From the NCBI GenBank assembly GCA_021792185.1, contig JAJYVD010000002.1, positions 14,759-78,758 of the forward strand: a stretch of 64,000 nt of DNA, read 5' to 3'. This DNA comes from Nitrospirota bacterium. GTDB lineage: Bacteria; Nitrospirota; Thermodesulfovibrionia; Thermodesulfovibrionales; Dissulfurispiraceae. Under the pieces are notes generated by a model. The model made no database searches and had not been told where the DNA came from. It worked only from the letters and a program-made list of their open reading frames with translations. Positions within the stretch are counted from its first letter, which is position 1, and every line of letters starts with the position of its first letter. Both the position numbers and the translations under genes were made by a program. Positions 14,970 through 58,984 of this stretch are shown in pieces.

Positions 14970-15088
14970 ATGGCACAGTATTTCCGCTCATTCTCGCCGA
15001 ACATCCATGTCCGGCTCCGAGGTACCAGCTCGGTTTCGCCATCACGGCAAAACCTTGAGCTGCTAAAACCGCTACAATACAATGCCAT
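14970..15088 (-). repeat. R1 nested-hairpin repeat, copy 1 (variant B)
   Basis: atggcacagtat...ttccgctcattctcg...ctccgagg...ccgctacaatacaatgccat. Shares the core with six other full copies. Lies between the usp stop and the ATPase start. Confidence 0.85.
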
Positions 15089-15103
15089 ACTCCCTCTATT
15101 CCA

Positions 15104-15943
15104 TTAAACTTCATGTCTTGGCTTCAGTATTATCAGATCGCACGGCGTCTCCCTCAGCACCTCTTCCACAGGATTGCCTCTGAGAATCGAAGACAACATG
15201 CTTCTTTCGCTCGCGCCCATTATTATCAGGTCGTGCCTTCTTGATGCAGCCTCGACGGTTATGCTCTTTGCGGCCGCTCCGGGCGAAAGCCTTCCCTCAA
15301 TTTCGACTTTGTACCTTTTCATATGCTCTATGAACTCGGATATGTCTTCAGGCAGCCTCTTTTCCCACTGGGCAGGCGTGAGATGCATTTCGCCGTGAAA
15401 AAACTTAGTTATAGGAGTCGTAGCGTGAAAGACAAAGACCTTAGAGCCGAAACATCCGGCCATTTTGGCCGTAAAATACGCCCGCTCCTGCATGCTGGCA
15501 ATCCTTGCCTTAAGAGGTATCAGGATATCTTTCGGATGGATCCTTCCCATATGGACGACACGCACGAGGGCTACGGAGCATGAAAGCTTCAGGGACAGGT
15601 TTCGCGCAACCGTCCCCGTGTAGAATCGCCTCTCGACATCCTCTCTCCTTGTCGATGCAAAGGCTATATCGATGCCTTCATGCCTTGCTATTTTATTTAT
15701 TTCTTCGACGGGCTTTCCGGTCTCTGTTATGCCCTCGACTGCTATCCCCATTTTTTCAGCGTCAATGAACAGTCTTTTTACGGCATCCTCCGCCTTTTCA
15801 AGACTCGATACGGACATTCCCTTTTCGGCAATAAAACATATATAAAGCTTTGCCCCACAGGCATTGGCGAGGTTCAGCGCATATCTTGCGGAGATCTCGG
15901 AATTGAGGTGTTCGTTTACCGCCGCAAGGATTTTCTTATACAT
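15104..15943 (-). CDS. tandem universal stress protein (UspA family)
   Basis: 279 aa with two Usp-like halves, each ending in a G-x2-G-x9-G(S/T)-type region (IIMGASERSMLSSILRGNP). Confidence 0.8.
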   Translation of the reverse strand: MYKKILAAVNEHLNSEISARYALNLANACGAKLYICFIAEKGMSVSSLEKAEDAVKRLFIDAEKMGIAVEGITETGKPVEEINKIARHEGIDIAFASTRREDVERRFYTGTVARNLSLKLSCSVALVRVVHMGRIHPKDILIPLKARIASMQERAYFTAKMAGCFGSKVFVFHATTPITKFFHGEMHLTPAQWEKRLPEDISEFIEHMKRYKVEIEGRLSPGAAAKSITVEAASRRHDLIIMGASERSMLSSILRGNPVEEVLRETPCDLIILKPRHEV

Positions 15944-16038
15944 GCCGCCTCCATTATAGTTAAACTATATCACATAAAAAGCTACAATAAAGGCGTAAGA
16001 CTTTACATTTTTGTAGCATCTTAATTAAACTGATAATC

Positions 16039-17580
16039 ATGAGCCGCAGCTACGACAAAACGCTGGAGATTACCGCCCTTTACGAAATAAGCAAGCTCTT
16101 GGGATCGTCCCTGAATCTCAAGTCCAATTTGCGTGGAGTTATGAGGGTGCTTGCCGAATATCTGGACATGAAACGCGGCACCGTCGCGCTCAGGAGCGAC
16201 AGCGAGGTCTCCATTATCGCCGCCCACGGCATGTCCGAGGAAGAGATAAAGAGGGGAAGATATAAGCTTGGCGAAGGCATTATCGGAAGGGTCGCAAAAC
16301 ACGGCTCTCCGATAGTCATTCCCAATATCGGCGACGAACCGTTGTTCCTCAACAAGACCGGTTCGAGGAAAACGATAAAAAAAGAGAATGTCGCCTTTCT
16401 GTGCGTTCCCATAAAATTCAAAAACGAAATACTCGGCGTATTGAGCGTTGACAGGCTCTTCGGCTCAAAGGCTGTTTCATTCGAGGAAGATTTAAGGTTA
16501 TTGAAGATTATCGCCTCGCTCATCGCGCAATACGTAAGAATGCATATGGAAATTGAAAGAGAGAGGGAGTCATTTCTCGAGGAGAAGGAAAATCTTAAGA
16601 GTCAGCTTAAAGGCAAATACAGGGTCGAAAATATTATAGGCCAGTCCGACAGCATGCAGGAGGTATTCGAGGCCGTTCACAGGGTCGCGCCTTCAAAGGC
16701 CAACGTGCTCTTGCGAGGCGAGAGCGGCACAGGCAAGGAGCTTGTCGCAAAGGCTATCCATTACATGAGCGCGCGGGCAAAAGGGCCGTTCATAAAATTC
16801 AACTGCGCCTCCATCCCCGAAGGGCTTCTCGAATCCGAACTCTTCGGACACGAAAAGGGATCATTCACGGGCGCTACCGCGATGAGGAAAGGCAGATTCG
16901 AACTCGCCAACGGCGGCTCGATATTCCTCGATGAGATCGGCGACCTGCCTTTGACCCTTCAGCCCAAGATATTGAGGGTATTGCAGGAAAAGGAATTCGA
17001 GAGGGTCGGCGGCGAAAAGACCATTAAAGTTGACGTGCGCCTTATCGCCGCCACGAGCAGAAACCTCGAAGAACTCGTTTCATCCGGTAAATTCAGGGAG
17101 GATTTATATTACCGTCTGAATGTCGTGCCTATCTTTCTGCCGTCCCTGATGGAGAGGAAAGAGGACATTTCTTTGCTTTCGGAATACTTCATCAAAAAAT
17201 ATAATACGGAAAATAACAAGTCGGCAATGATCACGCCCGACGTTATGAATGTTTTTATGAACTATGACTGGCCAGGCAATGTAAGAGAGCTTGAGAACAC
17301 GATAGAAAGGCTTGTGGTGATGGCGCGCGGCAAAAATATAACCGCGTCCGACCTTCCGATCAACATTAGAGAGCAGTCCATGAGGGCCCGTTACTCTGTC
17401 CAGATAAAGGACGCGCTTCCTTCGACCATCGAAGACATCGAGAAGGCAAGGATTCTCGGCGCCCTTCAAATGACCGGCTGGATTCAGGCAAAGGCGGCGA
17501 AATCGCTCGGCATAACTCCGAGGCAGATAGGCTACAAGATAAAAAAGTACAATATTCAGGAAACCTCCGGGTCGAAATAA
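16039..17580 (+). CDS. nifA: NifA-like sigma-54-dependent transcriptional activator (GAF-AAA+-HTH)
   Basis: N-terminal GAF domain ([16 protein letters not shown]...), AAA+ core with GESGTGKE and the GAFTGA-type loop [15 protein letters not shown], and a C-terminal Fis-type HTH. TGT-N10-ACA sites lie upstream of the nifH and nifB sigma-54 promoters in this window. Confidence 0.7.
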
Positions 17581-17638
17581 AACGGCATCTCCGGCATGCC
17601 TCTATATGCTCGGTTATACACAGCATGGAATCAATGAA

Positions 17639-18409: not shown

Positions 18410-18413
18410 AAAC

Positions 18414-19650: not shown

Positions 19651-19658
19651 GATTCTTA

Positions 19659-20210: not shown

Positions 20211-20225
20211 AGGTTGTTCCTCCCT

Positions 20226-21494: not shown

Positions 21495-21512
21495 AACATT
21501 CTCCTTTTTAGA

Positions 21513-21980
21513 CTATTTTACACCTTTAACAGCCGATTGATAACGGGCAAGCAGTTCAGGGTCGTCAATTGAACCGTGATGGTGGACCTGCCGCCACTGT
21601 CCGTCAAATAATTTGAATATTCTGCTTGTCCTTATTGCCAAAGGGACAACAGTATCGCCAATGCGGAATTCACCACGCTCTCTGCCAACTGCATAAAACA
21701 TTTCTTTTGTCTCATGTATTGTATAATCATAGAATTCCACATAGACTTTTGCAGGGCCGGTGAAAATTCGTTCATATACCGACCTGATTTCATTCCATCC
21801 CCGCTTGATGCCGCCGATGGGATTGTCCATGGCAATTTCATCAGTTTGAGCCCAGTTCTTTGACATCTTATCCATGTCACGATTATTGAAGGCGTTGTAA
21901 AAATCTACAAGGGCAAGCAAGGGGCCTTTCAGGTCTGCTCTGTCCTCATTGCCTGTGATAGGTGTCTGTTCTGCCTTCAT
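21513..21980 (-). CDS. SnoaL/NTF2-like fold protein (paralog 1)
   Basis: 155 aa, small alpha+beta barrel-type composition. Near-identical paralog at 23331-23798. Confidence 0.55.
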   Translation of the reverse strand: MKAEQTPITGNEDRADLKGPLLALVDFYNAFNNRDMDKMSKNWAQTDEIAMDNPIGGIKRGWNEIRSVYERIFTGPAKVYVEFYDYTIHETKEMFYAVGRERGEFRIGDTVVPLAIRTSRIFKLFDGQWRQVHHHGSIDDPELLARYQSAVKGVK

Positions 21981-23317: not shown

Positions 23318-23330
23318 ATCCTCCTTCTAA

Positions 23331-23798
23331 CTATTTTACACCTTTGACAGTCGATTGATAACGGGCAAGGAGTTCAGGATCATCGATTGAACCGTGATGA
23401 TGGACCTGCTTCCACTTCCCATCAATTAATATGAATATCCTGCTTGTCCTTATTGCTAAAGGGACAGCAGTATCTCCAATGCGAAACTCACCCCGCTCCC
23501 TGCCTACCGCATAAAACATCTCCTTTGTCTCATGGATCGTATAATCATAGAATTCCACATAGACCTTTGCAAGGCCGGTGAAAATTCGTTCATATACCGA
23601 CCTGATTTCATCCCATCCACGCTTGATGCCGCCCAGCGGATTATCCATTGCAATATCTTCAGTCTGTGCCCAGTTTTGGGACATGAGCATAATATTGCGG
23701 GTATTGAAGGCGCGGTAAAACTGAACAAGCGCGTAAAAAGGAGATGACGGGTCTTCCAGATTTTCGCTTCCTGTTATCGGTATTTGTATTGGTTGCAT
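23331..23798 (-). CDS. SnoaL/NTF2-like fold protein (paralog 2)
   Basis: 155 aa. The C-terminal ~100 residues are almost identical to those of 21513-21980. Confidence 0.55.
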   Translation of the reverse strand: MQPIQIPITGSENLEDPSSPFYALVQFYRAFNTRNIMLMSQNWAQTEDIAMDNPLGGIKRGWDEIRSVYERIFTGLAKVYVEFYDYTIHETKEMFYAVGRERGEFRIGDTAVPLAIRTSRIFILIDGKWKQVHHHGSIDDPELLARYQSTVKGVK

Positions 23799-28029: not shown

Positions 28030-29010
28030 ATGATACGCAAATATCTTTTACCTGTTTTGGCAGCGGCAGGCGCCCTCTTTGCCGTTTTTTCGGTTATGTC
28101 CGCCAGAAAATCGGCGCCGGTCCCTCCGCCGGTGGTGCAGCCGGCGCAGGCGCCCTTTAGATCATATATAGCGGGAGCCGGAATAATCGAGGCGAGCACG
28201 GAGAACATCGCCGTGGGCACAAACCTGCCGGGTATCGTGACTAAAGTATTTGTGAAAGTTGGAAGCAGGGTAAAGGCCGGCGATTCGCTTTTCACGCTCG
28301 ACGACCGGGAACTGCGCTCCGAACTGCTCGTCAAGCAATCAAACCTTGTTAAGGCTAAGGCATCTGTAGAGGAAGCCAAGGCTTCGCTGCAGGATTACCG
28401 GACGCAATATGCGCGTGTGAAAGGCGTGACCGACAGCCGGGCGGTCAGCGTAGATGAGATGGAAAAACGCCGCAACGCCGAATTGCTCGCCGAGGCGAAA
28501 CTCGAAAGCGCCAAGGCGGCGGTGATCGCGGTAGAGGCCGAAGTCAAAGCCGTACAAACCACTATAGAGCGCCTTACGGTGCGCGCGCCGGTAAACGGCG
28601 AGATCCTTCAGATCAATGTAAGGCCGGGCGAATATGCCCAGACCGGAGCGCTACAGAAGCCGCTTATGCTCCTCGGCAATCTCGACAGGCTGCATGTGCG
28701 CGTGGATGTGGATGAAAATGATGCATGGAGATTTAAGAAAGATGCGTCTGCGTTAGCATTTATCCGCGGCAACAGGGAGATGAAGACCCAACTCACTTAC
28801 GAGCGTACAGAGCCTTATGTTATACCTAAAAAGTCCCTCACGGGAGACAGCACAGAGCGGGTGGACACGAGGGTCATGCAGGTGGTTTACAGCTTTGACC
28901 GCTCCCAGTTGCAGGTGTATGTCGGACAGTTAATGGATGTCTTTATAGATGCCCCGCCTGTGGCGGCAACAAAACAGCCGCAGGAAAAGACCAATAGAGG
29001 CAAGAAATGA
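28030..29010 (+). CDS. HlyD-family periplasmic adaptor (DevB-like)
   Basis: 326 aa with an N-terminal TM, lipoyl-like halves around a coiled-coil hairpin, and a beta-barrel C-terminal part. Confidence 0.85.
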   Translation: MIRKYLLPVLAAAGALFAVFSVMSARKSAPVPPPVVQPAQAPFRSYIAGAGIIEASTENIAVGTNLPGIVTKVFVKVGSRVKAGDSLFTLDDRELRSELLVKQSNLVKAKASVEEAKASLQDYRTQYARVKGVTDSRAVSVDEMEKRRNAELLAEAKLESAKAAVIAVEAEVKAVQTTIERLTVRAPVNGEILQINVRPGEYAQTGALQKPLMLLGNLDRLHVRVDVDENDAWRFKKDASALAFIRGNREMKTQLTYERTEPYVIPKKSLTGDSTERVDTRVMQVVYSFDRSQLQVYVGQLMDVFIDAPPVAATKQPQEKTNRGKK

Positions 29011-29038
29011 AAATAACATTTAAAAACAGTCTCAAGGA

Positions 29039-29157
29039 GGATAAGGCATTATCCGCTCATTCTCGAAAGGCATCCAACCTTTCTCCGAGGCTACGCCAGC
29101 CTGCTCCGCCATCCATGGCTATGCATCGGCTGCCGAAGCCGCTTCAATGCCTTATCC
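29039..29157 (-). repeat. R1 nested-hairpin repeat, copy 2 (variant A)
   Basis: ggataaggcatt...ccgctcattctcgaaaggcatccaacctttctccgaggctacgccagc...gctgccgaagccgcttcaatgccttatcc, with a 12-bp perfect outer stem. It overlaps the 5' end of the outer-membrane factor gene. Confidence 0.85.
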
Positions 29158-38197: not shown

Positions 38198-39319
38198 ATG
38201 GATACCGTCGAAAAACTCAAAATACTTTCCAATGACTCGCAGTACGACCTTGCATGCGCGTGCGGCACAAACAAGGACGATCGCAGAATGAGGGGGCTCG
38301 ACGGCAAGTGGCTCTATCCTGTTACGCTTCCGAACGGAGGATACACCATCCTCCTGAAAACCCTTCTCTCAAATGCATGCGCGAATGATTGCAAATATTG
38401 TCCCCTGCGCTCGGAGACGGATGTGCGGCGCTGCACGCTCCAGCCGGAAGAGACGGCAAATATTTTTATGGAATATTTGCGAAAGAAAAAGGTCTTCGGC
38501 CTTTTTCTGAGTTCGGGAGTTATAGGCACGCCGGATCATACTATGGACAGGATCAACGCGGTTGCCCGCATTTTGAGATACAAGCATAAATTCAAAGGCT
38601 ACATCCATCTAAAGGCCATTCCCGGCGCATCAGATGCCGCGATCGAAGATGCCTTTTCGCTTGCGAGCGCTGTTTCATTGAATATCGAGACGCCGGGCAA
38701 AAATCGTTTTGATCTGCTTTCAGGCAAAAAGAATTATGAGCGGGACATCATTCGCCCGCTGAAGCTTATGTCGGAGCTTTCACGAAAGAAAGAGCGGTTT
38801 TCAAAGGTCAAATGCACCACGCAGTTCATTGTCGGAGCATCGGACGAGACGGATTCTGAAATAGTAAAATACATGTTCGGCATTTATAAAAAACTGAAAT
38901 TCCAGCGGGTCTATTTCTCGGCATATCAAAAAGGGCTCGGAAATCCCTATATCCCCGGCGAGCGCGGGATTACCGACAATCCGGAGCAGACATTTATGAG
39001 AGAGCACAGATTATATCAGGCGGATTTCCTTGTCCGGAGATACGGTTTTAATGCCGATGACATTATCCTCGACAGGACAGGCAATTTGAGACTGGACAAA
39101 GACCCGAAGCAGGTGTGGGCTGACAGCCATCCGGAATTTTATCCTGTAAGGATCAACATGGCCGACAAAGAGGCGCTCCTCAGGGTTCCGGGAATCGGGC
39201 CTGATTCTGTATCTAAGATTTTGAAGTTTAGGCGAGAGAAGAAAATCACCCGCATTGAGGATCTCGGCATTAAGGGCAAAAGGCTTGAAAAGGCAAAGCA
39301 ATATATGATTTGCGAATAA
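38198..39319 (+). CDS. putative DNA modification/repair radical SAM protein with C-terminal HhH
   Basis: CxxxCxxC cluster (CANDCKYC), a TIM-barrel-like middle, and a C-terminal helix-hairpin-helix (LLRVPGIGPDSVSKIL). Confidence 0.7.
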   Translation: MDTVEKLKILSNDSQYDLACACGTNKDDRRMRGLDGKWLYPVTLPNGGYTILLKTLLSNACANDCKYCPLRSETDVRRCTLQPEETANIFMEYLRKKKVFGLFLSSGVIGTPDHTMDRINAVARILRYKHKFKGYIHLKAIPGASDAAIEDAFSLASAVSLNIETPGKNRFDLLSGKKNYERDIIRPLKLMSELSRKKERFSKVKCTTQFIVGASDETDSEIVKYMFGIYKKLKFQRVYFSAYQKGLGNPYIPGERGITDNPEQTFMREHRLYQADFLVRRYGFNADDIILDRTGNLRLDKDPKQVWADSHPEFYPVRINMADKEALLRVPGIGPDSVSKILKFRREKKITRIEDLGIKGKRLEKAKQYMICE

Positions 39320-39324
39320 TATCG

Positions 39325-40929
39325 TTAAAACAGTCCTATCTGTTTCTTTTTGTCTTTTATCATCCTGTCAGAAACGACCATGCTATGAACTAAGTCCTTT
39401 GGAATTTCTTTCAGGAACGGCGATGCCGGTTGATTTAGTTTTTGTCCGTATAAGAACCTGCTTCTCGAATGCAAGAGGAAAAGCTCGTCCTTAGCCCTTG
39501 TCATGCCAACATAAAAGAGCCTTCTTTCTTCCTCTATGTCGGCACTGTCTTTGTTGAGCGTATAAGGGATTAAACCGTCCTCTGCCCCTGCAATGAATAC
39601 GACCCTGAACTCAAGCCCCTTTGCCATGTGCATCGTCATCAGTGTAACGGTATTTGCCTTTGGATCGAAGAGATCGTCGTCGCTTAGCAGGGTTTCTTCC
39701 AATGATGCGCTTTGCTCTTTTCCCGCCTCGCCGGATGGATCAATAATGCTTTTCATATACGAAATCGTGTCTTCTATCTCTTTTCTCTGGCGCAGGTTTT
39801 TCCTGCCTATAACCTGATAAGGAATTCCTGATTCCATAAAAACCTCTTCGACGGCGTTTGCCTGCGCGTTTGTCCTGAAGATGACCGCAAAATCCGAAAA
39901 ACCGTAAGAGCCTTCGCATACCGTACTTGCCCCCTTCGCATACAAATTATAATGGCTCGTGCAGCCCATCCGGGCATCTATTTCCTTAACGATGATCTCC
40001 CCTTCCGCCCTTTCATCCGGCACGGATACTATGTTTATCGAATTTCCCGAATTTTTTGCGGGAGTGAGGTTTTTCTCTATTCTTTTTAGATTGTTTTTTA
40101 TCATGGAGCCGGATGCGTTCAATATTGCTCCGGTTGAGCGATAGTTCTGTGTAAGGGCTATTGTTTTAGCGCCTTTGAAGTCTTTCTCAAAATTCAGGAA
40201 GTTCTCAATGTCCGCACCCCTGAACGCGTATATAGCCTGATCCGAATCTCCTACGGCGCAGACATAAGCCTTATCCCCGGCCAAAAGTTTTAACAATCTG
40301 TATTGCGCCGGGTTAATGTCCTGATATTCGTCAACGATGATATGACTGAACATATCCTGATATTGTTTAAGGACGGCTTCATCCTGAAACATATCAATCG
40401 GTTTCAGAATAAGGTCGTCGAAATCGAGCGCGGATTTTGCCGCGAGGGCTGATTGATACGCCTCATAAACTGTATTAATTTCCGCATCCCTGTCTTCGAG
40501 AAAATTTTTGATTCTCGATATTCTTTCGGCTGCATCATGCGCCTTTGCTTTCGTCCCTTTCAGGATTTCTTTCAGGATATTCATCTGCCCGTCTCTGTCG
40601 CATATCACAAAATCATCCTGCATGAATTGCTTCAAAATTTTAAGGCCGAGGAGATGAAATGTGCCGATAAAGAGGTTATTTGAATGCCTGCCCAAAAATG
40701 ATTCTGTTCTCTCCTTCATCTCCCTTGCAGCGCGGTTGGTGAATGTAACCGCAAGTATCTTTTCGGGACTTACGCCCTGATTGACGAGATGCGCGATCCT
40801 TCGGACAATGGTTAATGTCTTGCCTGTGCCCGGACCAGCGACTATAAGCAGGTGTCCGTCTGTGGCGGTTACAGCCTGCTTCTGCGATTCGTTTAGTCCG
40901 TCAAGGAAAGAAGAGTCAGGGTGTTTCAT
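39325..40929 (-). CDS. compact UvrD/Rep/PcrA-family helicase
   Basis: 534 aa with AGPGTGKT, DEYQD, TQNYRS, TMHMAKGLEF and VGMTRAK motifs. Confidence 0.8.
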   Translation of the reverse strand: MKHPDSSFLDGLNESQKQAVTATDGHLLIVAGPGTGKTLTIVRRIAHLVNQGVSPEKILAVTFTNRAAREMKERTESFLGRHSNNLFIGTFHLLGLKILKQFMQDDFVICDRDGQMNILKEILKGTKAKAHDAAERISRIKNFLEDRDAEINTVYEAYQSALAAKSALDFDDLILKPIDMFQDEAVLKQYQDMFSHIIVDEYQDINPAQYRLLKLLAGDKAYVCAVGDSDQAIYAFRGADIENFLNFEKDFKGAKTIALTQNYRSTGAILNASGSMIKNNLKRIEKNLTPAKNSGNSINIVSVPDERAEGEIIVKEIDARMGCTSHYNLYAKGASTVCEGSYGFSDFAVIFRTNAQANAVEEVFMESGIPYQVIGRKNLRQRKEIEDTISYMKSIIDPSGEAGKEQSASLEETLLSDDDLFDPKANTVTLMTMHMAKGLEFRVVFIAGAEDGLIPYTLNKDSADIEEERRLFYVGMTRAKDELFLLHSRSRFLYGQKLNQPASPFLKEIPKDLVHSMVVSDRMIKDKKKQIGLF

Positions 40930-41590
40930 TTATAATGATTTCTTTGATGCGGGCTTTAAAAAATCTTTCGATATCTTCTCTCGTTACAGAAATCCTTAAC
41001 GGCAGATTTTCAACTCCATCCGGTATCTGCAATAGCCTGCTCTTCAAAATATGCCTTATCCCTTTGACTTCGCACTTCTGTTCTGCAAGCGCGAACATCT
41101 CATTTATATTAAGGCCGGAAGAGGTTAAGGCACAATAAACATCAATATAGTCCTTTGCGTCAGACCTGTCCGCCATAGCGCAGAGTTTATTCACCGTGAG
41201 ATCAAGAAATCCGTCAACATGCAGTCCGTCAATCGTGACAGCAGCTTCAATATTCCTGAGCGGATAATAAGTGAATTCGGTCTTTAAGGCTGTGCCGTCT
41301 TTCAGTTTGAGATTGAAAATGTTTCTGTCAAAAAGCCTTGTGTGACTGATGGCATCGACAAAACTCAGTGACTTCAGAAACTCCTCCGGCAGGTAAAATG
41401 GGATCTTATCATGCGAGAAAAAATCGAGGTCTTCAGAGAACCTGTGCTCCAGATAAAACGCGCTCAAGGCTGTGCCACCCGTGAGTCTGAAGACATTGCC
41501 CATGTCGGATTTAACGAACCCCTCAAGCAAGGAGATCTGTGCTAACGTGAGTATGGAGTTATTTCGTATGCCCTTTAACGGCTTTCTCAT
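40916..41590 (-). CDS. AbiEii/AbiGii-family nucleotidyltransferase toxin
   Basis: GGTALSAFYLEHRFSEDLDFF motif, 224 aa. Overlaps both neighbouring ORFs. Confidence 0.75.
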   Translation of the reverse strand: MRKPLKGIRNNSILTLAQISLLEGFVKSDMGNVFRLTGGTALSAFYLEHRFSEDLDFFSHDKIPFYLPEEFLKSLSFVDAISHTRLFDRNIFNLKLKDGTALKTEFTYYPLRNIEAAVTIDGLHVDGFLDLTVNKLCAMADRSDAKDYIDVYCALTSSGLNINEMFALAEQKCEVKGIRHILKSRLLQIPDGVENLPLRISVTREDIERFFKARIKEIIINETP

Positions 41591-41819
41591 CCCATACCTC
41601 TTTGTAGAGGGCTATAAGTTTATATTTCCCTTGTTCCAGTTTGAGCTTGTCCCTGTATTCAAAAAGGAGTTCGACCGTCTCTCTCTCCGTCCCGTATTGC
41701 GGGAAAAAATCAGCAATACGCTGGAGCCTCCACAGAATGTCATCCGGCGGCTCCTTATAGTCCCATAGGAGTTCGGGAGGGATATGAATGTCTTTATTTG
41801 GGTTTAATGTCTGTGTCAT
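41559..41819 (-). CDS. small protein, putative cognate antitoxin of the AbiEii-like toxin
   Basis: 86 aa from ATG 41819. Overlaps the toxin gene by 32 nt. No family recognised with confidence. Confidence 0.4.
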   Translation of the reverse strand: MTQTLNPNKDIHIPPELLWDYKEPPDDILWRLQRIADFFPQYGTERETVELLFEYRDKLKLEQGKYKLIALYKEVWDEKAVKGHTK

Positions 41820-41881
41820 AATGCCGCCTCTATTAATTTTATCATATACGCTCAAATTTGGAGGGAATAATTATGAGAGCT

Positions 41882-43444
41882 CTACTCAACCGCCTTTATC
41901 TCGAGTATCCTCTCTATATGAAATACCCGATTGTCCTTCCGCGAGGTGCAGAACGCCTGAACTCCCGTGAATTTTCTTCCGTTGTATTCAAGCTCTCCAA
42001 CGAATGAGGGCAGAATTGTCCTTCGTGATTTCTCGTCCTTTGTCTTTAGATAAACAATTTCAAGCGGCCTTTTATCCCTTATGGCCTGGGCTATTATGGA
42101 AAGCTTTTCATCAACCGACAGGTTCTTGTGCGCCTGTTTATACTGGTATTTCGTAACAAAATCCACGACACGCCAGTCCATAAATATATGTCTTTGGGCA
42201 ATCGGTTTTTTTAGGACAATTCCTTCAAGGGTAGTGCAGCGGCTGAGGGCTACATAAATCTGGCCGTGAGAGAATGTCCCTCTGCCTATATCTATTATCA
42301 CCTTTTCAAATGTCATGCCCTGTCCCTTGTGTATGGTTACCGCCCACGCGAGTTTGAGAGGATATTGAGTGAATGTGCCGACAACATCGGATATGACCGC
42401 GCCTGCCTTTTTGTCGTAATGGAATTCATACATCCCCCATGTATAAGGCTCGACATCTACGGTTTCTCCGTCCTGAAGCTTTATGCGGATAATATCAGAC
42501 TCGTCCTTGTTCTTTTTGATGCCCGTAATCCTGCCGATGCTCCCGTTTATCCACCGCCCCATAGAGTCGTTATTCAGGAGCATCACCTGCGCTCCGCTTT
42601 TAATCGTTAGGTCAAGGCCTGTGGGCAGGTCTTTTGCATTAAAGTCCCCCGCGACCAGGCCGTGATAGCGGTATTCTTTACCTTTGAGATCGGCGAGCCG
42701 TCTTGTGTTAATGGAGTCGGCGAGGTCGTTTGTTGTTGTGAGATAAATATAAAAACCCTTGTCGTCATGGAAGTCCGGCATGCACCGCGCATTGATCTTG
42801 GAAATGTCCTCGTCTGTGGCAGTATTATTTCTGATAGCATTGAGGATGTTCAGAAATTTGTCATCCCTCTGGCGATAGACTTTTTCAAGCTCTATAAACT
42901 GCATATCAAAACCGCTGCCGAAAAGCATAGCATCAAAGAAATACGGACTCTTGTAAAGGGTTTCGAACAGAGCCTTATCCCGCGATGTCACAACAGGAGG
43001 CAACTGGTAAAGGTCTCCGATAAAGATTATCTGAAGGCCGCCGAAAGGCTGGCTCTTGCTCTTTCCGTGAATGCGGAGGAAGCCGTCTATGCAGTCCATG
43101 AGGTCGGCGCGCACCATCGAGACCTCGTCAATCACAATAGCGTCGAGCTTTTTATAAATGGACTTTTCTTTCGGGCGCATCCCCTTCACTATATCAGGAG
43201 TAATATCCGGTTTGAAGCCGAAGAATGAATGGATGGTCTGGCCCTTCACATTTACCGCTGCAACGCCTGTGGGCGCAAGCACCGCGATGTTTTTTTTCGT
43301 AGTATTCCTGAAATGCTGAAGGAGCGTTGACTTGCCTGTGCCTGCCCTGCCGGTAATGAAGGCATTTTTATCTGTCTCCTCCATTACATTAAGGGCATTG
43401 AGGAATTGGGGGTTAAGGTCGAGGGATATGTCAGCCGATTTCAT
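41882..43444 (-). CDS. Pif1/RecD-like SF1 helicase with C-terminal WYL-like domain
   Basis: GRAGTGKST, LAPTGVAA, DEVSMV, GDLYQLPPV, TIHKGQGMTF and YVALSRC motifs. The C-terminal ~70 aa (RPLEIVYLK...RVFHIERIL) resemble a WYL domain. Confidence 0.7.
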   Translation of the reverse strand: MKSADISLDLNPQFLNALNVMEETDKNAFITGRAGTGKSTLLQHFRNTTKKNIAVLAPTGVAAVNVKGQTIHSFFGFKPDITPDIVKGMRPKEKSIYKKLDAIVIDEVSMVRADLMDCIDGFLRIHGKSKSQPFGGLQIIFIGDLYQLPPVVTSRDKALFETLYKSPYFFDAMLFGSGFDMQFIELEKVYRQRDDKFLNILNAIRNNTATDEDISKINARCMPDFHDDKGFYIYLTTTNDLADSINTRRLADLKGKEYRYHGLVAGDFNAKDLPTGLDLTIKSGAQVMLLNNDSMGRWINGSIGRITGIKKNKDESDIIRIKLQDGETVDVEPYTWGMYEFHYDKKAGAVISDVVGTFTQYPLKLAWAVTIHKGQGMTFEKVIIDIGRGTFSHGQIYVALSRCTTLEGIVLKKPIAQRHIFMDWRVVDFVTKYQYKQAHKNLSVDEKLSIIAQAIRDKRPLEIVYLKTKDEKSRRTILPSFVGELEYNGRKFTGVQAFCTSRKDNRVFHIERILEIKAVE

Positions 43445-47027: not shown

Positions 47028-47038
47028 GAAATCAGGTT

Positions 47039-47452
47039 TTATTTCTTCTGCATTCTGTCGCCTTTTTTCTGCATGCGATCTCCCTGCCTCTGCATGCGCT
47101 CGCCTTTCTTCTCCATCATGTCGCCCTGCTTCTGCATCATTTCTCCTCTGCGCTCCATTTTTTCGCCGGTCCTTTCCATCTTTTCAGCGGCCTTCTCGTG
47201 CCCGGCCTCCCTCATTTTTTCCGACCTTTCCTGAAGCATTTCTCCCTTCTTTTCGAGCATCTCGCCTCTCTTTCCCCTCTGCTCGCCCTTTTTCTCCATC
47301 ATCTCGCCGTGCTGCTCCCTCATTTCCCCGCGTTTCTCAAGGCGTTTTCCGGCCTTCTCTTTGGGGACAGGCCGTTCAGCCGCGATACCCTGAGGCATTT
47401 GAACCATAAGCAGTCCAAGGGCTACAGATAAACACACCAGAAGTCTTTTCAT
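47039..47452 (-). CDS. secreted Met/Lys/Glu/Gly-rich periodic repeat protein
   Basis: The start at 47452 has GGAGG. A signal peptide (MKRLLVCLSVALGLLMVQMPQGIAA) is followed by ~10 repeats of an ~11-residue unit (GEMMEKKGE / GDRMQKKGD). Confidence 0.55.
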   Translation of the reverse strand: MKRLLVCLSVALGLLMVQMPQGIAAERPVPKEKAGKRLEKRGEMREQHGEMMEKKGEQRGKRGEMLEKKGEMLQERSEKMREAGHEKAAEKMERTGEKMERRGEMMQKQGDMMEKKGERMQRQGDRMQKKGDRMQKK

Positions 47453-51549: not shown

Positions 51550-54258
51550 ATGACTACGGGACTGGACAAATATTTCGAGCACGGCTGCGGCGCGGAGAAG
51601 AAGGACAAGGTCTGCCGTTCGCGGGGCGGGGAATCGTGCGCATTTGACGGCGCAATGATAGTCCTTCAGCCCATAGCCGATGCCGCTCATATCGTCCACG
51701 GCCCGATTGCATGCTGCGGCAATTCGTGGGAAGGAAGGGGAACTCTGTCATCAAAGGGCAGCCTCCACAAGATGGGTTTTACAACGGATATGAGCGAGAT
51801 GGATATCATCTATGGCTCTGAAAACAAGCTCTATGAAGCGATATTGCGTACTTATGAAGCGGTAAGGCCGAAGGCGATATTTGTTCACGCAACCTGCGTG
51901 AGCGGCTTGATAGGAGAAGACATCGAGGCGGTCTGTAAAAAGGCCGAAGCATCTCTCGGCATTCGGGTGATTCCCGTAAATGCGCCGGGATTTGTCGGCC
52001 CTAAGAATCTCGGAAACAGAATAGCGGGAGAGGTTTTGCTCGATTATGTGATAGGAACCGGCAAGCCGTCTGAAGGGGACAGTCCCGATTCTACGACTTC
52101 GCTTCCCTTCGCCCGTAAATCTGGCGCCCGTAAATCCGGGACAGTCCCCAATTTAATCAATCTTATAGGCGAATACAACATAGCGGGCGATTTATGGCTT
52201 GTCGAGCCAGTCCTTAAAAAAGCAGGAATAAGGGTTCTTTCGAGGATGACAGGCGATTCGACATTTGAGGAGATAACATACGCGCACCGTGCGAAGCTGA
52301 ACGTGGTGGTATGCAGCCGCGCGTTGATAAACATTGCGAGGGAGATGGAAAGGAAATACGGAATCCCGTATATCGAAGTCTCCTTCTTCGGGAAAACCGA
52401 GATGTCGAAGGCTATGAGGCTTATCGCCTCAAATTTCAAATCTCAAATTTCAAATCTCAAATTGACGGAGAAGGTTGAAACAATCATTGAAGAGGAAGAA
52501 AAACGACTCGAAGAAAAATTGAAGGCTTATGAAAATTTGAAAGGCAAAAAGGCCGTGCTTTATACAGGCGGCGTGAAGAGCTGGTCTTTTATTTCCGCGC
52601 TTATGGATTTGGGGATAGAGATCGTCGCCGTCGGCACAAAGAAAAGCAGCCTTGAAGACGAAGAGAAGATGAAAGAGATATTGGGGCAGGATGCGCCTCT
52701 TGTTGAAGACGTAACACCCAAGAACCTGCTCAGGCTTCTGAAAGATAAAAATGCGGATATCCTCATCGCGGGCGGAAGGAACCAGTATCTTGCCGTAAAA
52801 GAGGGGTATCCATTTGTGGATGTCAATCAGGAAAGGCATACGGCATATGCGGGATACGACGGATTGATAAATTTAGCCGGGCAGATAAGCAGCGGTCTGC
52901 GCTTTTATGCAAAGCATAGGGCATACATGTCGAATAAGACTTATACTCGAAGCCATGGAAAGGGGACTGTCCAGGATTTACGGGCGGGTTCATCTATGGC
53001 TTTGGGCGAAGCCGTAGAATCGGGACTGTCCCCGCGAATTAAGAAAAAAGAAATTCTTATCAACCCGTTGAAGCACTCTCAGGCTATCGGCGCCGCTATA
53101 GCATTTCAGGGGATTGATAAGGCGCTTCCTATTATTCACGGAGCGCAGGGATGCACTTTTTTAGGAAAGGTGCTTTTGACAAAGCATTTCAGGGAGCCGA
53201 TCGCCCTCGCATCCACAAAGCTCTTTACGGAGAATGTTGTTATGGGAAGCGAGGACAATATAACAAAAACGGTCGAAGGATTTATCGAAAAGAACAATCC
53301 CGCTTTGATAGGAATTTTTACATCGGGACTCTCGGAAGTGAAGGGCGATGATATTATGGCTTCAGCGAAGGGGCTGGATGTTTCAAACGGCGGGACAACG
53401 GTGCTGCATGTCCCTACCCCGGATTATGAAGGAGGATTGGAAACAGGGTATGCGAAAGCCGTAGAGGCGATTCTTGATGTTGTTACGGGGAATGCTGCGA
53501 ATATGCGCAGTTCACGGGTCACGGAAAAACAGATTAATGTTATTTCAGGCTCGCATCTCAGCCCGGCCGATTTTACGGAACTGAGGGAGATAATAGAATC
53601 ATTCGGCTTAATGCCTATAATTCTGCCTGACCTGTCCGTGCTCGACGGAAGCAGGCAGGGTATGTCGGCCATTGCGATCGGAGGCGCAAGTATCGATGAA
53701 ATCAGCGGGATGTCGAAATCGGAATTTACCCTTGCGATAGGCTCAAGCATGGAGGCTTCCGCCAGGAAGCTGAAGGAAAGGTTCGGCATAGAATACCGGG
53801 TATTTGAGAGCATTGCCGGATTAAAGGATACGGACATGTTCATGGAGACGCTTTCGATGTTGAGCGGCAGGCCTGTTCCAAAAAAATACGAAAGGCAGAG
53901 GCGGAGTTTAATAGACGGGATGAGGGACGCGCATTTTTATTACGGCGATAAAAAGGTATGCATAGCGCTGGAGCGTGATCTGTCTATTCAGGCGTCGAGA
54001 TTGCTTGATGAGATGGGCGCTGAAATTGAAAGCGTCGATGTTAATTCGGGAGACCTGTTTTCTGTCGAGGGTAATTTTGACCTGCTTATTTCAAATTCCC
54101 ATGCGGAAGATGCAGCAAAGAGGCTCGGAGCGCCTTTGTATCAGATGGGGTTCCCTGTCTACAAAGTTCTGGGAAATAACCACAGGATTACTATCGGATA
54201 CAGAGGGACTCTGAATATGATTAATGATATAGCAAATTCACTGGCAGGAGTAAATTAG
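51550..54258 (+). CDS. nifEN: fused FeMo-cofactor scaffold NifE-NifN
   Basis: 902 aa in a single ORF. The N-terminal ~460 aa are NifE-like (CAFDGA, HGPIACCGNSWEGRG, INLIGEYNIAGD). The C-terminal ~410 aa are NifN-like (INPLKHSQAIGAAIAFQGI..IHGAQGCT). Confidence 0.85.
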   Translation: MTTGLDKYFEHGCGAEKKDKVCRSRGGESCAFDGAMIVLQPIADAAHIVHGPIACCGNSWEGRGTLSSKGSLHKMGFTTDMSEMDIIYGSENKLYEAILRTYEAVRPKAIFVHATCVSGLIGEDIEAVCKKAEASLGIRVIPVNAPGFVGPKNLGNRIAGEVLLDYVIGTGKPSEGDSPDSTTSLPFARKSGARKSGTVPNLINLIGEYNIAGDLWLVEPVLKKAGIRVLSRMTGDSTFEEITYAHRAKLNVVVCSRALINIAREMERKYGIPYIEVSFFGKTEMSKAMRLIASNFKSQISNLKLTEKVETIIEEEEKRLEEKLKAYENLKGKKAVLYTGGVKSWSFISALMDLGIEIVAVGTKKSSLEDEEKMKEILGQDAPLVEDVTPKNLLRLLKDKNADILIAGGRNQYLAVKEGYPFVDVNQERHTAYAGYDGLINLAGQISSGLRFYAKHRAYMSNKTYTRSHGKGTVQDLRAGSSMALGEAVESGLSPRIKKKEILINPLKHSQAIGAAIAFQGIDKALPIIHGAQGCTFLGKVLLTKHFREPIALASTKLFTENVVMGSEDNITKTVEGFIEKNNPALIGIFTSGLSEVKGDDIMASAKGLDVSNGGTTVLHVPTPDYEGGLETGYAKAVEAILDVVTGNAANMRSSRVTEKQINVISGSHLSPADFTELREIIESFGLMPIILPDLSVLDGSRQGMSAIAIGGASIDEISGMSKSEFTLAIGSSMEASARKLKERFGIEYRVFESIAGLKDTDMFMETLSMLSGRPVPKKYERQRRSLIDGMRDAHFYYGDKKVCIALERDLSIQASRLLDEMGAEIESVDVNSGDLFSVEGNFDLLISNSHAEDAAKRLGAPLYQMGFPVYKVLGNNHRITIGYRGTLNMINDIANSLAGVN
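52075..52149 (+). repeat. R2 palindrome-bounded 75-bp element inside the NifE coding region
   Basis: ggggacagtccc...cccgtaaatc tg gcg cccgtaaatc c gggacagtcccc. Exactly 25 codons (GDSPDSTTSLPFARKSGARKSGTVP). Confidence 0.8.
52429..52463 (+). repeat. tandem heptamer array (TCAAATY x5) inside NifE
   Basis: tcaaatt tcaaatc tcaaatt tcaaatc tcaaatt read directly. Encodes NFKSQISNLKL. Confidence 0.75.
52962..53033 (-). repeat. R2 element, inverted copy, 72 bp, in the NifE-NifN linker
   Basis: ggggactgtccaggatttacggg...gtagaatcgggactgtcccc is the reverse complement of the ends of the 52075 copy. Exactly 24 codons long. Confidence 0.8.
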
Positions 54259-54287
54259 TTGTGAGGCAGTTATTTGAGAATAATGGA

Positions 54288-54414
54288 GGAAGGGCATGGT
54301 ATTGGAGCGACTTCGGCAGCCCAAGCGTATCAAGGACAGAGGAGCGGGCTGGCGTAGCTTCGGAGGAAGGCTTGGATGCCTTCCGAGAATGAAGCGGAAA
54401 TATTATGTCCTTCC
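54288..54414 (+). repeat. R1 nested-hairpin repeat, copy 4 (variant A)
   Basis: ggaagggcat-gGTATTGGAGCGACTTCGGCAGCCC...GGAAGGCTTGGATGCCTTCC GAGAATGAAGCGGAAATAT-t-atgtccttcc. Confidence 0.9.
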
Positions 54415-54451
54415 TCAGAGAAGCATTAAACGTTTGTAAGGAGGTGCACAA

Positions 54452-54844: not shown

Positions 54845-54857
54845 CAGTGGCTAATCA

Positions 54858-54985
54858 GACAGGACATAGTATTTACGCTTCATTCTCGGAAGGCATCCAA
54901 GCCTTCCTCCGAGGCTACGCCAGCCCGCTTAGCCGTCCATGGCACGCTATGGGCTGCCGAAGCCGCTCCAATACTATGTCCTGTC
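54858..54985 (-). repeat. R1 nested-hairpin repeat, copy 5 (variant A), inverted relative to copy 4
   Basis: gacaggacatagtat...atactatgtcctgtc, a 15-bp perfect outer stem. The core is nearly identical to the reverse complement of copy 4. Confidence 0.9.
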
Positions 54986-55020
54986 TATTATAAAAAACTC
55001 AATGAATAGGAGGAAGAGAA

Positions 55021-55751: not shown

Positions 55752-55754
55752 GTC

Positions 55755-55885
55755 ACAGGCATGACATAGTATTTCCGCTCATTCTCGACAGGCATCCGAG
55801 CCTGTCTCCGAGGCACCGGCTCGGTTTCGCCGTCATGGCGAAACTTCGAGCCGCTGAAACCGCTTCAATACAATGTCATACCTGT
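55755..55885 (-). repeat. R1 nested-hairpin repeat, copy 6 (variant B)
   Basis: acaggcatgacatagtat...ttccgctcattctcgacaggcatccgagcctgtctccgagg...cgcttcaatacaatgtcatacctgt. Confidence 0.9.
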
Positions 55886-55928
55886 AATCTCATAGGGTTT
55901 GAACTGAAAAACAAGAAAGGAGAGCGTA

Positions 55929-56204: not shown

Positions 56205-56225
56205 AAGTGCGCGGAATTTTATTGC

Positions 56226-56942: not shown

Positions 56943-57013
56943 GTCTTTACCCCTCCGGTAAAATGGTTTGCATCAATTATACCAGAACAGCGGCTATTAT
57001 CAAACAACAAAAA

Positions 57014-57029
57014 TGTCTCAATAGCTACA
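57014..57029 (+). promoter_or_regulatory. NifA-type upstream activator site (TGT-N10-ACA) of nifB
   Basis: TGTctcaatagctACA followed by TAAATG, ~65 bp upstream of the -24 element. Confidence 0.6.
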
Positions 57030-57094
57030 TAAATGCATGAAAGCTGAAATCCGTAAAATCCGGCTTTCCCTATGATTTCATGAGCTTACACATC

Positions 57095-57110
57095 TGGCAT
57101 CGCTATTGCA
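57095..57110 (+). promoter_or_regulatory. sigma-54 promoter of nifB
   Basis: TGGCAT-cgcta-TTGCA. Confidence 0.8.
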
Positions 57111-57150
57111 TTTGTTAATGCAAGACTATTCTTTAAGGCGAGGTGGCTAT

Positions 57151-58044
57151 ATGAGACGGTTAGGGATTCTCAGGGAGAAGGACATAATGAAAAGCCATCC
57201 CTGTTTTTCGGAAGAGGCTCATCATAAATTCGGGAGGCTGCATCTTCCGGTCGCTCCCGCGTGCAATATCCAGTGCAGATACTGCATAAGGAAATACGAC
57301 TGCGCCAACGAGTCGAGGCCTGGAATCACAAGCAGGGTCTTATCGCCTGCCGGGGCGCTGGAGAGGGTAAGGGCGCTTGTAGGAAGGAGCGGGAACCTCA
57401 GCGTGGTCGGGATAGCAGGACCGGGCGACCCGCTGGCAAACGACGCGACTTTCGAGACAATGAGGGCGATCAACAGGGAATTCCCGGAATTGATACTCTG
57501 CGTTTCCACGAACGGCCTTTATCTTTCGGACAGGCTTGAAGACCTCGTGAAATGCGGCGTCAGGAGCCTTACCATAACCATCAACTCCGTTATGCCGGAG
57601 ACGGCCGAGAAAATATATTCGTGGGTGAACTATAGAGGCAAGCGTTACACCGGCAGGGATGCGGCTGAATGCCTTTTATGCAACCAGTGGAGAGGTTTGA
57701 GGAACGCTATAGACGCGGGGCTTATCGTGAAAGTGAACAGCGTTCTGATCCCCGGAGTCAACGACGCGGAAATCCCGTTAATCGCATGGCTTGCGGGCGG
57801 GAAGGGCGCGGATATCATGAACATAATACCTCTCATCCCGCAGGCCGAATTCGAACATCTGAGCAGGCCGTCGCGCGAAACGCTAAACAGGATGAGGGAC
57901 AGGTGTGTTCATTACATTCCGCAGATGACGCACTGCAGGCAGTGCAGGGCGGATGCGTGCGGTATCCTCGGAGAGGACAAGGACATGGAGCTTGAGGTTT
58001 TGAATGCTCGGATCGGAGAGGAGTACTGTGAGATGGTTAACTGA
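57151..58044 (+). CDS. nifB: FeMo-cofactor biosynthesis radical SAM protein NifB (stand-alone SAM domain)
   Basis: HPCFSEEAHHKFGRLHLPVAPACNIQCRYC and a C-terminal CRQCRADACG. At ~297 aa it has no NifX-like C-terminal extension. The start is placed downstream of the sigma-54 promoter. Confidence 0.85.
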   Translation: MRRLGILREKDIMKSHPCFSEEAHHKFGRLHLPVAPACNIQCRYCIRKYDCANESRPGITSRVLSPAGALERVRALVGRSGNLSVVGIAGPGDPLANDATFETMRAINREFPELILCVSTNGLYLSDRLEDLVKCGVRSLTITINSVMPETAEKIYSWVNYRGKRYTGRDAAECLLCNQWRGLRNAIDAGLIVKVNSVLIPGVNDAEIPLIAWLAGGKGADIMNIIPLIPQAEFEHLSRPSRETLNRMRDRCVHYIPQMTHCRQCRADACGILGEDKDMELEVLNARIGEEYCEMVN

Positions 58045-58786
58045 CGGAGAACGTGAGCGCTACCGGAGGCAGCTTATGCTCGAAGGGTTCGCGGAATATC
58101 ACCAGAGAAAGCTGAAGGATTCCACCGCGTTTATCGCAGGCATCGGCGGCCTCGGCGGAACAGCCGCTGCTTATCTTGCTGTGGCAGGTATCGGGAAAAT
58201 GATAATAGCCCACTCCGGCAATCTGACCCTTTCGAATATGAACAGGCAGATATTGATGAAAAATGACTGGATAGGCAAGAGCAGAGTAGAGCAGGCGAAG
58301 AAAACCATAGAGGAAATAAATCCGGATGTTGAGGTTGATATATATGATGAGCGGACATCCCACTCTAACGTCGATAAGTTGCTTGAAGGAGCGCAGATAG
58401 CACTGTCGGCCCGGCCTAATTTTAATGAAAGGCGCGTTTTAAACAACGCATGCATTCGGATGAATATACCGATGGTCGAGGCCGCGATGAACGGGATGGA
58501 GGGATATATATTCAATATCATCCCCGAAGTTACGCCGTGCCTGAACTGCCTGTATCCCGACGACAATCCCGAATGGGAGGAACTCGGCTTCCCGGTGCTC
58601 GGCGCCGTATCGGGCATGCTCGGCTGCCTCATGGCCATCGAGGCAATCAAGCTGCTCACAGGCTACGGGAAGCCGTTGTTTTCAAAGATGCTCGTCTTTA
58701 ATACCGACGGCATGGATTTTAAAAAACTGAACATAAGAAGGGACGATAATTGCGCGGTATGCGGGCAGGCGGGCATAAACAGCTAA
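58004..58786 (+). CDS. hesA: HesA/MoeB/ThiF family adenylyltransferase
   Basis: RYRRQLML, GIGGLGG nucleotide loop and CxxC pairs (CLNC, CAVC). A GTG at 58028 is an alternative start. Confidence 0.75.
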   Translation: MLGSERSTVRWLTDGERERYRRQLMLEGFAEYHQRKLKDSTAFIAGIGGLGGTAAAYLAVAGIGKMIIAHSGNLTLSNMNRQILMKNDWIGKSRVEQAKKTIEEINPDVEVDIYDERTSHSNVDKLLEGAQIALSARPNFNERRVLNNACIRMNIPMVEAAMNGMEGYIFNIIPEVTPCLNCLYPDDNPEWEELGFPVLGAVSGMLGCLMAIEAIKLLTGYGKPLFSKMLVFNTDGMDFKKLNIRRDDNCAVCGQAGINS

Positions 58787-58813
58787 ATCACAATGTTCAC
58801 AAATACCAGGATC

Positions 58814-58947
58814 AAGACGTAAGACAAAGTATTGGAGCGACTTCGGCAGCCCAGGCGTTACATGGACGTTTAAGCGGGCTGGCGCAGCTTCGGAGAAAGG
58901 CCGGATGCCTTTCGAGAATGAAGCGGAAATGCTGTGTCTTACGTCTT
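58814..58947 (+). repeat. R1 nested-hairpin repeat, copy 7 (variant A) with 13-bp outer stem
   Basis: aagacgtaagaca-aaGTATTGGAGCGACTTCGGCAGCCC...GAGAATGAAGCGGAAATGC-tg-tgtcttacgtctt. Confidence 0.9.
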
Positions 58948-58949
58948 AG

Positions 58950-58984
58950 CGAAACTTAGAACTGCTAAAACCGCTCCAATACTT
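58950..58984 (-). repeat. partial R1 repeat (variant-B arm only)
   Basis: gcgaaacttagaactgctaaaaccgctccaatact matches the distal arm of copies 1 and 6. Confidence 0.6.

Follow-up and report, generated by a model that had tools for sequence, protein, structure and literature searches.

A 64-kb stretch of a Nitrospirota bacterium genome (contig JAJYVD010000002.1; called the window here, meaning the whole stretch of DNA analysed) carries a nitrogen-fixation (nif) cluster and, scattered between housekeeping genes, seven full copies (c1–c7) and one remnant of a repeat of ~135–140 nt that we term R1. Three of the copies lie in spacers of the nif cluster, which has the order nifH-D-K-EN-[c4]-X-[c5]-PII-PII-[c6]-fdx, and together the copies occupy ~1.4% of the window. 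R1 is a real, strongly structured family that is found in neither Rfam 15 nor the literature searched. The copies, which fall into subtype A (c2, c3, c4, c5 and c7) and subtype B (c1, c6 and the remnant), are as follows.

14964..15094, minus strand: c1, subtype B, with a P2 loop of GUGAU rather than GGA (121.3 bits; folding z = −5.6); spacer between a Usp gene and a P-type ATPase gene, sense to both neighbours.
29034..29162, minus strand: c2, inside the open reading frame (ORF) 29007-30545 for a NodT-type outer-membrane lipoprotein, in frame and antisense to the gene.
31828..31963, plus strand: c3, between convergent isocitrate dehydrogenase and glutaredoxin-like genes (153 bits).
54286..54416, plus strand: c4, nifEN-nifX spacer, sense to the nif operon (149.9 bits).
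54857..54986, minus strand: c5, nifX-PII spacer, antisense to the operon (156.3 bits).
55753..55887, minus strand: c6, subtype B, spacer separating the second PII gene from the ferredoxin gene, antisense to the operon (129.3 bits).
58814..58947, plus strand: c7, 3′ of a ThiF-family gene (151.7 bits).
58949..58993, minus strand: remnant of a subtype-B copy, retaining the 5′ P1 arm, J12 and the first half of P2; abuts c7.

A covariance model was built from a MAFFT/RNAalifold alignment of the seven window copies. Searched over the window with filters off, this model R1 returns exactly seven copies at 121–156 bits, so that the seven positions named in the original prediction, which was made from the letters of the window, are confirmed by both sequence and model matches. 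Beyond these copies and their reverse-strand echoes (8.5–25 bits), nothing in the window exceeds 13 bits, and the 19-nt core GGAGCGRCTTCGGCAGCCC occurs five times at ≤3 mismatches against 0.04 expected. The partial copy predicted at 58950-58984 is likewise real: it is the 5′ ~35–45 nt of a minus-strand subtype-B copy and is 85% identical to c1. In addition, c4 and c5 form an 88-nt inverted pair around nifX that is 89% complementary (54324-54411 with 54861-54948), and in one transcript the two could pair long-range and loop out nifX.

In order to collect related copies, an exact-pattern scan was run on one genome per species of GTDB, with a pattern that fixes UCGGAG, GGAUG and CGAGAAUGA. The scan yielded at least 115 loci, which were taken as segments of ~8 kb and carry L-numbers below. 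Among the matches listed, model R1 gives ~93 at E < 1e-7, nearly all of them full length. Six copies fall outside the pattern, having UCGGAA..CUGAGAAUGA (one more compensated pair) and GGAGG loops. The carriers are metagenome-assembled genomes (MAGs) from at least seven phyla (Nitrospirota, Desulfobacterota, Latescibacterota, Gemmatimonadota, Omnitrophota, Spirochaetota and Nitrospinota), with G+C contents from 0.31 to 0.76. One copy, in L064, belongs to Desulfospira joergensenii DSM 10085. In Nitrospirota several copies can occur within one 8-kb locus, and the closest relatives of the window are Thermodesulfovibrionales MAGs.

The copies share a fold that is preserved by compensatory change. 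Each window copy folds with z = −5.4 to −8.3 relative to dinucleotide shuffles, and 19 of the 41 RNAalifold pairs show compensatory changes within the window copies alone. When 93 copies are compared, standard pairs fill 95.1% of pair cells, as against 58.3% after column shuffles and 36–47% when the partner is slid by 1–3 columns; 39 of the 41 pairs have double (compensatory) changes, and the covariation score is 0.88 against 0.19. The selection on structure proposed in the original prediction is supported by these pairing and double-change counts, and the five variants of the internal hairpin (P3) around a GGAU loop that it listed are correct.

From 5′ to 3′ the anatomy is P1 (~21 bp)-uGA-GC-G-g-n-U-U-P2-(n)CC-UC-GGA-[P3b 7 bp + apical loop]-GA-GA-AUGa-GC-G-n-AA-P1′, a three-way junction bearing the hairpins P2 and P3. 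P2 is a long hairpin with A-rich internal loops and an apical loop Ca(n)GGAnG, while P3 has the form CUC-GGA-[7 bp]-loop-[7 bp]-GAG, with (c)a(n)GGAUG as the P3b loop in nearly all copies. The internal loops read uGA-GC-GGnUU on the 5′ side and AAUGA-GC-GAA on the 3′ side, where tandem sheared G.A pairs can form (uGA/GAA and GGA/GA). Some 25 near-invariant nucleotides sit in the junctions and internal loops, between stems that covary freely. Conservation is highest at the centre of the element and lowest at its termini, in distal P1.

One strand of the element is the better folder. Across the 93 copies, G:U and U:G pairs outnumber A:C and C:A pairs by 151:34 overall and by 110:11 in P1, which upholds and generalises the earlier observation that non-Watson-Crick positions read as G:U in one orientation and as A:C in the other. 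Mean folding energy is −72.5 kcal/mol for this top strand and −64.3 kcal/mol for the bottom strand, and in 81 of 90 copies it is the top strand that folds with the lower energy. The ratio of G:U to A:C is 23:3 in copies sense to co-directional neighbours and 50:12 in antisense copies. Since the same bias appears in both, the signature belongs to the element's own strand and not to host mRNA, and a plain reading of R1 as a structured part of host mRNA does not explain the antisense copies. Of the earlier suggestion that R1 functions as RNA or as one specific single strand, the part that stands is that one strand is folded (151:34; 81 of 90 copies); this strand may be RNA or single-stranded DNA (ssDNA).

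Comparison of orthologous copies shows the same kind of change at individual loci. Between c3 and its orthologue in L126 (5936-6075), the stems differ by three double compensated changes and by one C-to-U change that gives U:G. Between c6, which is antisense to the nif operon, and its L130 orthologue there are three single changes, and every one of them converts a Watson-Crick pair to U:G or the reverse.

The outer stem P1, measured outward from the G.A loop, is 18–23 bp long in 66 of 95 copies, with a mode of 21 in all phyla. Its consensus is weak: the 5′ arm is purine-rich (G 33%, C 14%) and the inner part reads ..GRCAUNGUAUU. The original prediction held that each copy is closed by a stem of its own sequence. 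The closing stem is indeed present in each copy, but the stems are not unrelated sequences, as shown by the weak consensus, by the ~70% identity between the P1 arms of c3 and c7, and by the shared length of ~21 bp. P1 is thus an integral helix of the element in which only pairing and length are constrained, while the sequence drifts by compensatory change.

Two origins had been offered for these stems, and the data favour the second of them, covariation of a structured single strand. Under the first, the core inserted into the loops of host terminator hairpins, so that the outer stems would be host sequence. In one nested case the P2 loop of an older copy is interrupted by the start of c7, and some copies hold small secondary hairpins within their loops; even so, we regard this reading as very unlikely, and it is largely refuted. 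P1 keeps a length of ~21 bp and a consensus across seven phyla. T-rich tails are rare, being found behind 5 of 86 copies when the top strand is read and behind 2 of 86 when the bottom strand is read. No intrinsic terminator, in the sense of a G+C-rich stem with a U-tract, was found at the copies, where the terminator scan gave none. The empty orthologous sites are short spacers: the clearest, the nifX-PII spacer of L130, has 17 nt and no hairpin, and the empty nifEN-nifX spacer of L129 has 18 nt. It is on the length and consensus of P1, the missing U-tracts and these two sites that terminator-loop insertion is rejected. Moreover, c2 lies in coding sequence. The possibility that an outer-stem arm of c2 is ancestral signal-peptide sequence was discarded, given that the c2 P1 resembles that of c3 and has the standard length.

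Orthologous sites in related MAGs record gain, loss and decay of copies. One site lies in coding sequence, that of c2, which sits between the n-region (MKITFKNSLK) and the h-region of the lipoprotein signal peptide. The orthologues in L124 and L127, which have the same MacB-ABC-MFP-OMP-IDH order, begin MKKLIIFSLLIAGC or MKRGIIAVALILTGC and are without the element, while the closest relative, L126, retains a 23-nt c2 remnant that now codes for SPKPLQC. In the nif cluster, the c4 site is empty in L129, filled identically in L128, and filled in the opposite orientation in L130, where the P1 arms are similar and the right flank is the same. By comparison, c5 is absent at its site in both L128 and L130, and c6 has orthologous copies in both. 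The nifX product is unchanged on contigs of one MAG species, namely those of GCA_023382185.1 and an ENA contig of 142 kb. The nifX-PII spacer of L128 (~800-870) holds a different nested-hairpin repeat of ~70 nt, GTGTCATTCC...GGAATGACAG, with two similar inner hairpins.

Replacement of one copy by another is seen at c7. The syntenic locus L081 has a complete subtype-B copy (5435-5573) where the window has c7 and the remnant, and the remnant breaks off in the P2 loop, exactly at the start of c7. In the window, c7 has taken the place of most of a subtype-B copy. A 245-bp extra segment in L081 was considered as a further element and set aside, as it holds a small membrane ORF.

Several copies are embedded in larger composites. 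One 224-bp composite occurs in both L036 and L062, with its core pointing opposite ways, and L046 shows the same pattern. That L036 and L062 are two assemblies of one invertible locus was excluded: homology between them stops ~45 nt beyond the element, which makes them separate loci with one composite repeat. In JBFLYJ01, R1 is the centre of a repeat of 275–350 bp with outer inverted repeats of 27 nt, and the copy in L110 has a 51-bp stem. Some copies also carry small perfect hairpins, inserted in the loop of P2 or P3 or at the 3′ terminus (L034 948-1126, L094 255-435, L115 1953-2067 and L069 3704-3868). Most of the loop-nested hairpins have the form CCC(C)RAAAAGTC-N3-GACTTTTYGGG(G), with a 42-nt hairpin instead in L069, which suggests a further mini-palindrome family.

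The composites bear on an account of R1 as a palindrome at the DNA level (a cruciform, a protein-binding site or an invertible segment), whose arms would be kept matched by templated quasi-palindrome correction or recombination. Cores in both orientations within the same outer context, the extra layers in L110 and JBFLYJ01, and the double changes between orthologues would all suit such an account. We nevertheless judge it improbable, because a symmetric DNA process predicts G:T and A:C in about equal numbers, as opposed to the 110:11 in P1, and because the conserved junctions are asymmetric and non-palindromic. Nor do the copies behave as invertons: no recombinase gene adjoins them, and five samples of the source species show a single orientation. 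These samples agree on the presence and orientation of c4 and c5 (five samples), c6 (four) and c7 (two), and opposite orientations are found only between species or loci.

The genomic context of R1 is that of a repeat in short spacers, with elements lying 5–30 nt from the ends of ORFs. Relative to their neighbours, 29 copies are antisense, 14 sense, 12 between convergent and 10 between divergent genes. The 116 genes that neighbour the copies represent 145 Pfam families, and no family occurs more than three times. Among the families listed for these genes there is no transposase, reverse transcriptase or recombinase, and no Y1_Tnp; the window genes tested, near the copies and in the 35–43 kb island, include no transposase. 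The earlier remark that no transposase lies nearby therefore holds for both sets of genes, and the RAYT/IS200-type transposase envisaged there was not found among the families of the genes neighbouring the copies. Promoter and terminator scans gave no signal at the copies.

Direct repeats in the flanks of R1 have the same length distribution as re-paired flanks, giving no sign of target duplication, and the sole flank feature is an A at position −1 in 61% of copies. R1 thus lacks the conserved terminal inverted repeats and target-site duplication of classical miniature inverted-repeat transposable elements that depend on DDE transposases, and its variable ends contain no 20–40-nt REP ends in inverted pairs, as REPs and REPINs do. 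No reading frame of R1 is kept open, frames being open in 0–39% of copies versus ~12% in shuffles.

This context also decides against a riboswitch or other cis-regulatory leader of nitrogen-fixation or other genes. Three copies within the nif cluster, together with a three-way junction carrying conserved junction nucleotides, would invite that interpretation. However, the copies occur in both orientations in one operon (c4 sense; c5 and c6 antisense), their neighbours belong to 145 unrelated families, and others lie between convergent genes and inside an ORF; there is neither a fixed position and strand nor a recurrent gene family. The leader reading, to which we attach almost no credence, is refuted by orientation and context.

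Searches of RNA-family, viral and plasmid collections returned no relative of R1. No Rfam 15 family among 4227 models matches it, which answers the comparison proposed originally, and the window at gathering thresholds gives only a c-di-AMP riboswitch (12119-12250, minus strand, 83.5 bits; directly 5′ of the minus-strand ORF 10241-12121) and a tRNA gene (10133-10205, plus strand). Permissive Rfam scans at E ≤ 10, with four copies and then with one copy, produced only noise (E ≥ 0.87). Three matches in viral contigs were all chance matches inside coding sequence, a blastn search of the plasmid database gave no match, and full-text literature searches turned up no specific Nitrospirae or Thermodesulfovibrio repeat or RNA motif that matches R1.

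Could R1 be a new self-cleaving ribozyme, or another catalytic or processing RNA, carried on a selfish element? A parallel is offered by the twister, hammerhead, hatchet and pistol RNAs, which are multi-copy, in either orientation and without gene association. R1 resembles them in its ~25 near-invariant nucleotides in junctions and internal loops, its multi-copy, context-free distribution across phyla and its strand-specific fold. Against this, models of hammerhead, twister, twister-sister, pistol, hatchet, HDV-like and hairpin ribozymes have no match at E ≤ 10, neither a pseudoknot nor a conserved cleavage-site context was identified, and the invariance of several junction columns is inflated by the search pattern. 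We consider a ribozyme doubtful. A hammerhead-like reading of AAUGAGCGAAA was dismissed by eye, as the CUGANGA core is missing and the GC/GC is the base of the junction, not stem II.

The loops raise a different possibility, namely that R1 is a protein-binding RNA module, most plausibly for proteins of the CsrA/RsmA family, whose junction presents two CA(N)GGAUG hairpin loops side by side to one CsrA dimer. The copies would then act as sponges or confer CsrA control on their neighbours, and multiplication would be secondary. The P3 loop reads c-a-(N)-GGA-u-g, with GGA in ~80 of 81 copies. The P2 loop, which the search pattern does not fix, has GGA in 54 of 75 copies, mostly in a context like ca(N)GGA(u/g)g. 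These loops match the consensus RUACARGGAUGU from systematic evolution of ligands by exponential enrichment, in which GGA sits in a hairpin loop. R1 has GGA in more than one hairpin loop and, beyond these, in J12 and an internal loop, and the wobble bias favours the GGA-bearing strand. Other features fit this proposal poorly. Where the flanking genes are co-directional, about two thirds of the copies run antisense, and elements 5–30 nt from ORF ends leave no room for a promoter. The P2 loop of subtype B (c1, c6) is GUGAU, and the strongest conservation is in the junctions, which CsrA binding does not require. R1 has no match to the CsrB, RsmY, RsmZ or TwoAYGGAY models, and no promoter or terminator signal marks it as an independent small RNA (sRNA) gene. 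A csrA motif search of the window and the 8-kb loci gave no match, which is uninformative. Taken together, we see a CsrA-binding module as an unlikely primary identity.

We class R1 with the small non-autonomous intergenic palindromic repeats, with REP/ERIC-like behaviour and an inverted architecture. ERIC/IRU and Correia (CREE/NEMIS) elements are palindromic intergenic repeats of 100–160 bp in enterobacteria and Neisseria that alter mRNA processing or stability, for example through RNase E (PMC3184786). R1 is like them in its size, long hairpin, location in short co-transcribed spacers, either orientation and presence or absence between relatives. It departs from them at its termini, which vary and show no target duplication, whereas ERIC and Correia elements are defined by conserved terminal inverted repeats and a TA target duplication. 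What R1 conserves is an internal three-way junction, and it ranges over at least seven phyla where those elements keep to a single family or genus. REPs and REPINs, which RAYT (Y1/HUH) transposases mobilise, are also non-autonomous; their hairpin is thought to act in single-stranded form, and they show compensatory changes and leave singlet remnants (PMC3116915). R1 shares with REPINs the non-autonomy, the lack of target duplication, the compensatory hairpin changes and the remnants of decayed units. In REPINs, however, the two ends (REPs) are conserved and the spacer is variable, and in R1 the reverse is true; moreover, REPs are restricted to a species and group around their RAYT gene, whereas no Y1 transposase stands beside the ~90 R1 copies.

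Other systems are more distant. As in Rickettsia palindromic elements, c2 is read through in frame and forms part of a signal peptide, and the L126 remnant codes for SPKPLQC; in contrast to those elements, R1 has no consistently open frame and nearly all its copies are intergenic. CsrB, RsmY, RsmZ and TwoAYGGAY RNAs have GGA hairpin loops in the CA(N)GGAUG context preferred by CsrA/RsmE, as does R1, but those RNAs come from sRNA genes, present once or in few copies and equipped with a promoter and terminator. R1 has neither signal and is high-copy and context-free. Integron attC sites are recognised as a folded single strand, with conserved structure, variable sequence and one active strand. 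The likeness to R1 is an analogy of mechanism only, as attC sites have conserved R and L boxes at the stem base, adjacent cassettes and an integrase, none of which R1 shows.

We therefore favour, at about an even chance of being right, the reading that R1 is a new, uncatalogued, structure-defined non-autonomous intergenic repeat that multiplies and turns over in short spacers. A conserved fold combined with the absence of any catalogued RNA family makes it look like a new small repeat, either selfish or domesticated. In the mechanism we propose, the element would be copied or selected through its single-stranded top strand, as RNA or ssDNA. A structure-recognising enzyme, presumably encoded elsewhere, may set the ends by their distance from the junction rather than by terminal sequence. 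Such measuring would explain the conserved centre, the variable ends, the fixed P1 length and the lack of target duplication. A co-transcribed copy might then act as a REP, ERIC or Correia element does, by introducing into the mRNA a duplex of ~25 bp and very high stability, probably long enough to serve as an RNase III-type processing or stability module; RNase III acts on Correia elements. In the top orientation, the transcript would also expose GGA loops of the kind bound by CsrA/RsmE proteins.

A number of points weigh against R1 as such a multiplying repeat or soften its support. The alignment behind the pairing statistics had been fitted to the model's own structure, and the invariance of the UCGGAG, GGAUG and CGAGAAUGA columns is partly built in because the search pattern fixes them. 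Some double changes within the 20-nt P3 hairpin could be mimicked by short-tract gene conversion between copies. That orthologous sites change in a compensatory way suggests constraint at each locus, which is not expected of a purely selfish element. The agreement of the five samples in presence and orientation of copies means that movement is slow or has stopped; no mobilising enzyme was found, and no excision or insertion intermediate was seen. The excess of antisense copies between co-directional genes (about two thirds) is also awkward for any function that depends on the host transcribing the top strand.

A more far-reaching proposal is that R1 represents an undescribed kind of mobile element. 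It would be a three-way-junction module of single-stranded RNA or ssDNA that either is copied or excised by an enzyme reading the junction and measuring about two helical turns down P1, or is itself a new self-processing ribozyme, and that has spread horizontally through at least seven anaerobe-rich phyla with CsrA-type loops. We put this forward tentatively, as unlikely but with a chance that is not negligible. As a rule, small intergenic repeats are restricted to a lineage and it is their ends that define them. A family that holds on to an internal, RNA-like three-way junction in seven phyla while its ends drift would be a new model for the recognition and copying of non-autonomous elements.

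With 39 of 41 pairs covarying and no match in Rfam, R1 would be a well-supported addition to the catalogued structured families. Its share of the window (~1.4%), its presence in three nif spacers and the rewritten start of a lipoprotein gene make it matter for annotation, operon prediction and assembly of MAGs from Nitrospirota, Desulfobacterota and related phyla. The CsrA-like loops offer a testable biochemical lead, and we know of no CsrA-antagonist RNA in the carrier phyla.

The window and its relatives contain further repeats and clusters. A second repeat of ~72–75 nt, bounded by GGGGAC(A/T)GTCCC, occurs at 52075-52149 and 52962-53033 in inverted orientation. Both copies are inside the 902-aa NifE-N fusion ORF, the first in frame and translated as ...EGDSPDSTTSLPFARKSGARKSGTVP..., and an 11-mer of the repeat occurs four times against 0.5 expected; it looks like a second family that inserts into coding sequence. 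Operator-like repeats of the form ..CATACAAAATTGTA..TTACAAAAATGTA are found at 59024-59062, 62477-62515 and 36620-36658, and in L081 at ~1215-1250 and ~5380-5420. They lie 5′ of nrfH and behind amt. Their conservation extends to the syntenic locus in a related MAG, and they are candidate binding sites of a nitrogen regulator.

Upstream of nifH, a minus-strand ORF contains a 21-nt tandem repeat (47035-47350) of ~10 copies that are 60–84% alike. A defence-type cluster at 35020-43444 encodes an AIPR protein, an AbiEii nucleotidyltransferase toxin, a UvrD-like helicase and a PIF1-like helicase with a WYL domain. Finally, a 300-nt direct duplication with 89% identity (21512-21811 and 23330-23629) covers the starts of two paralogous 155-aa ORFs.

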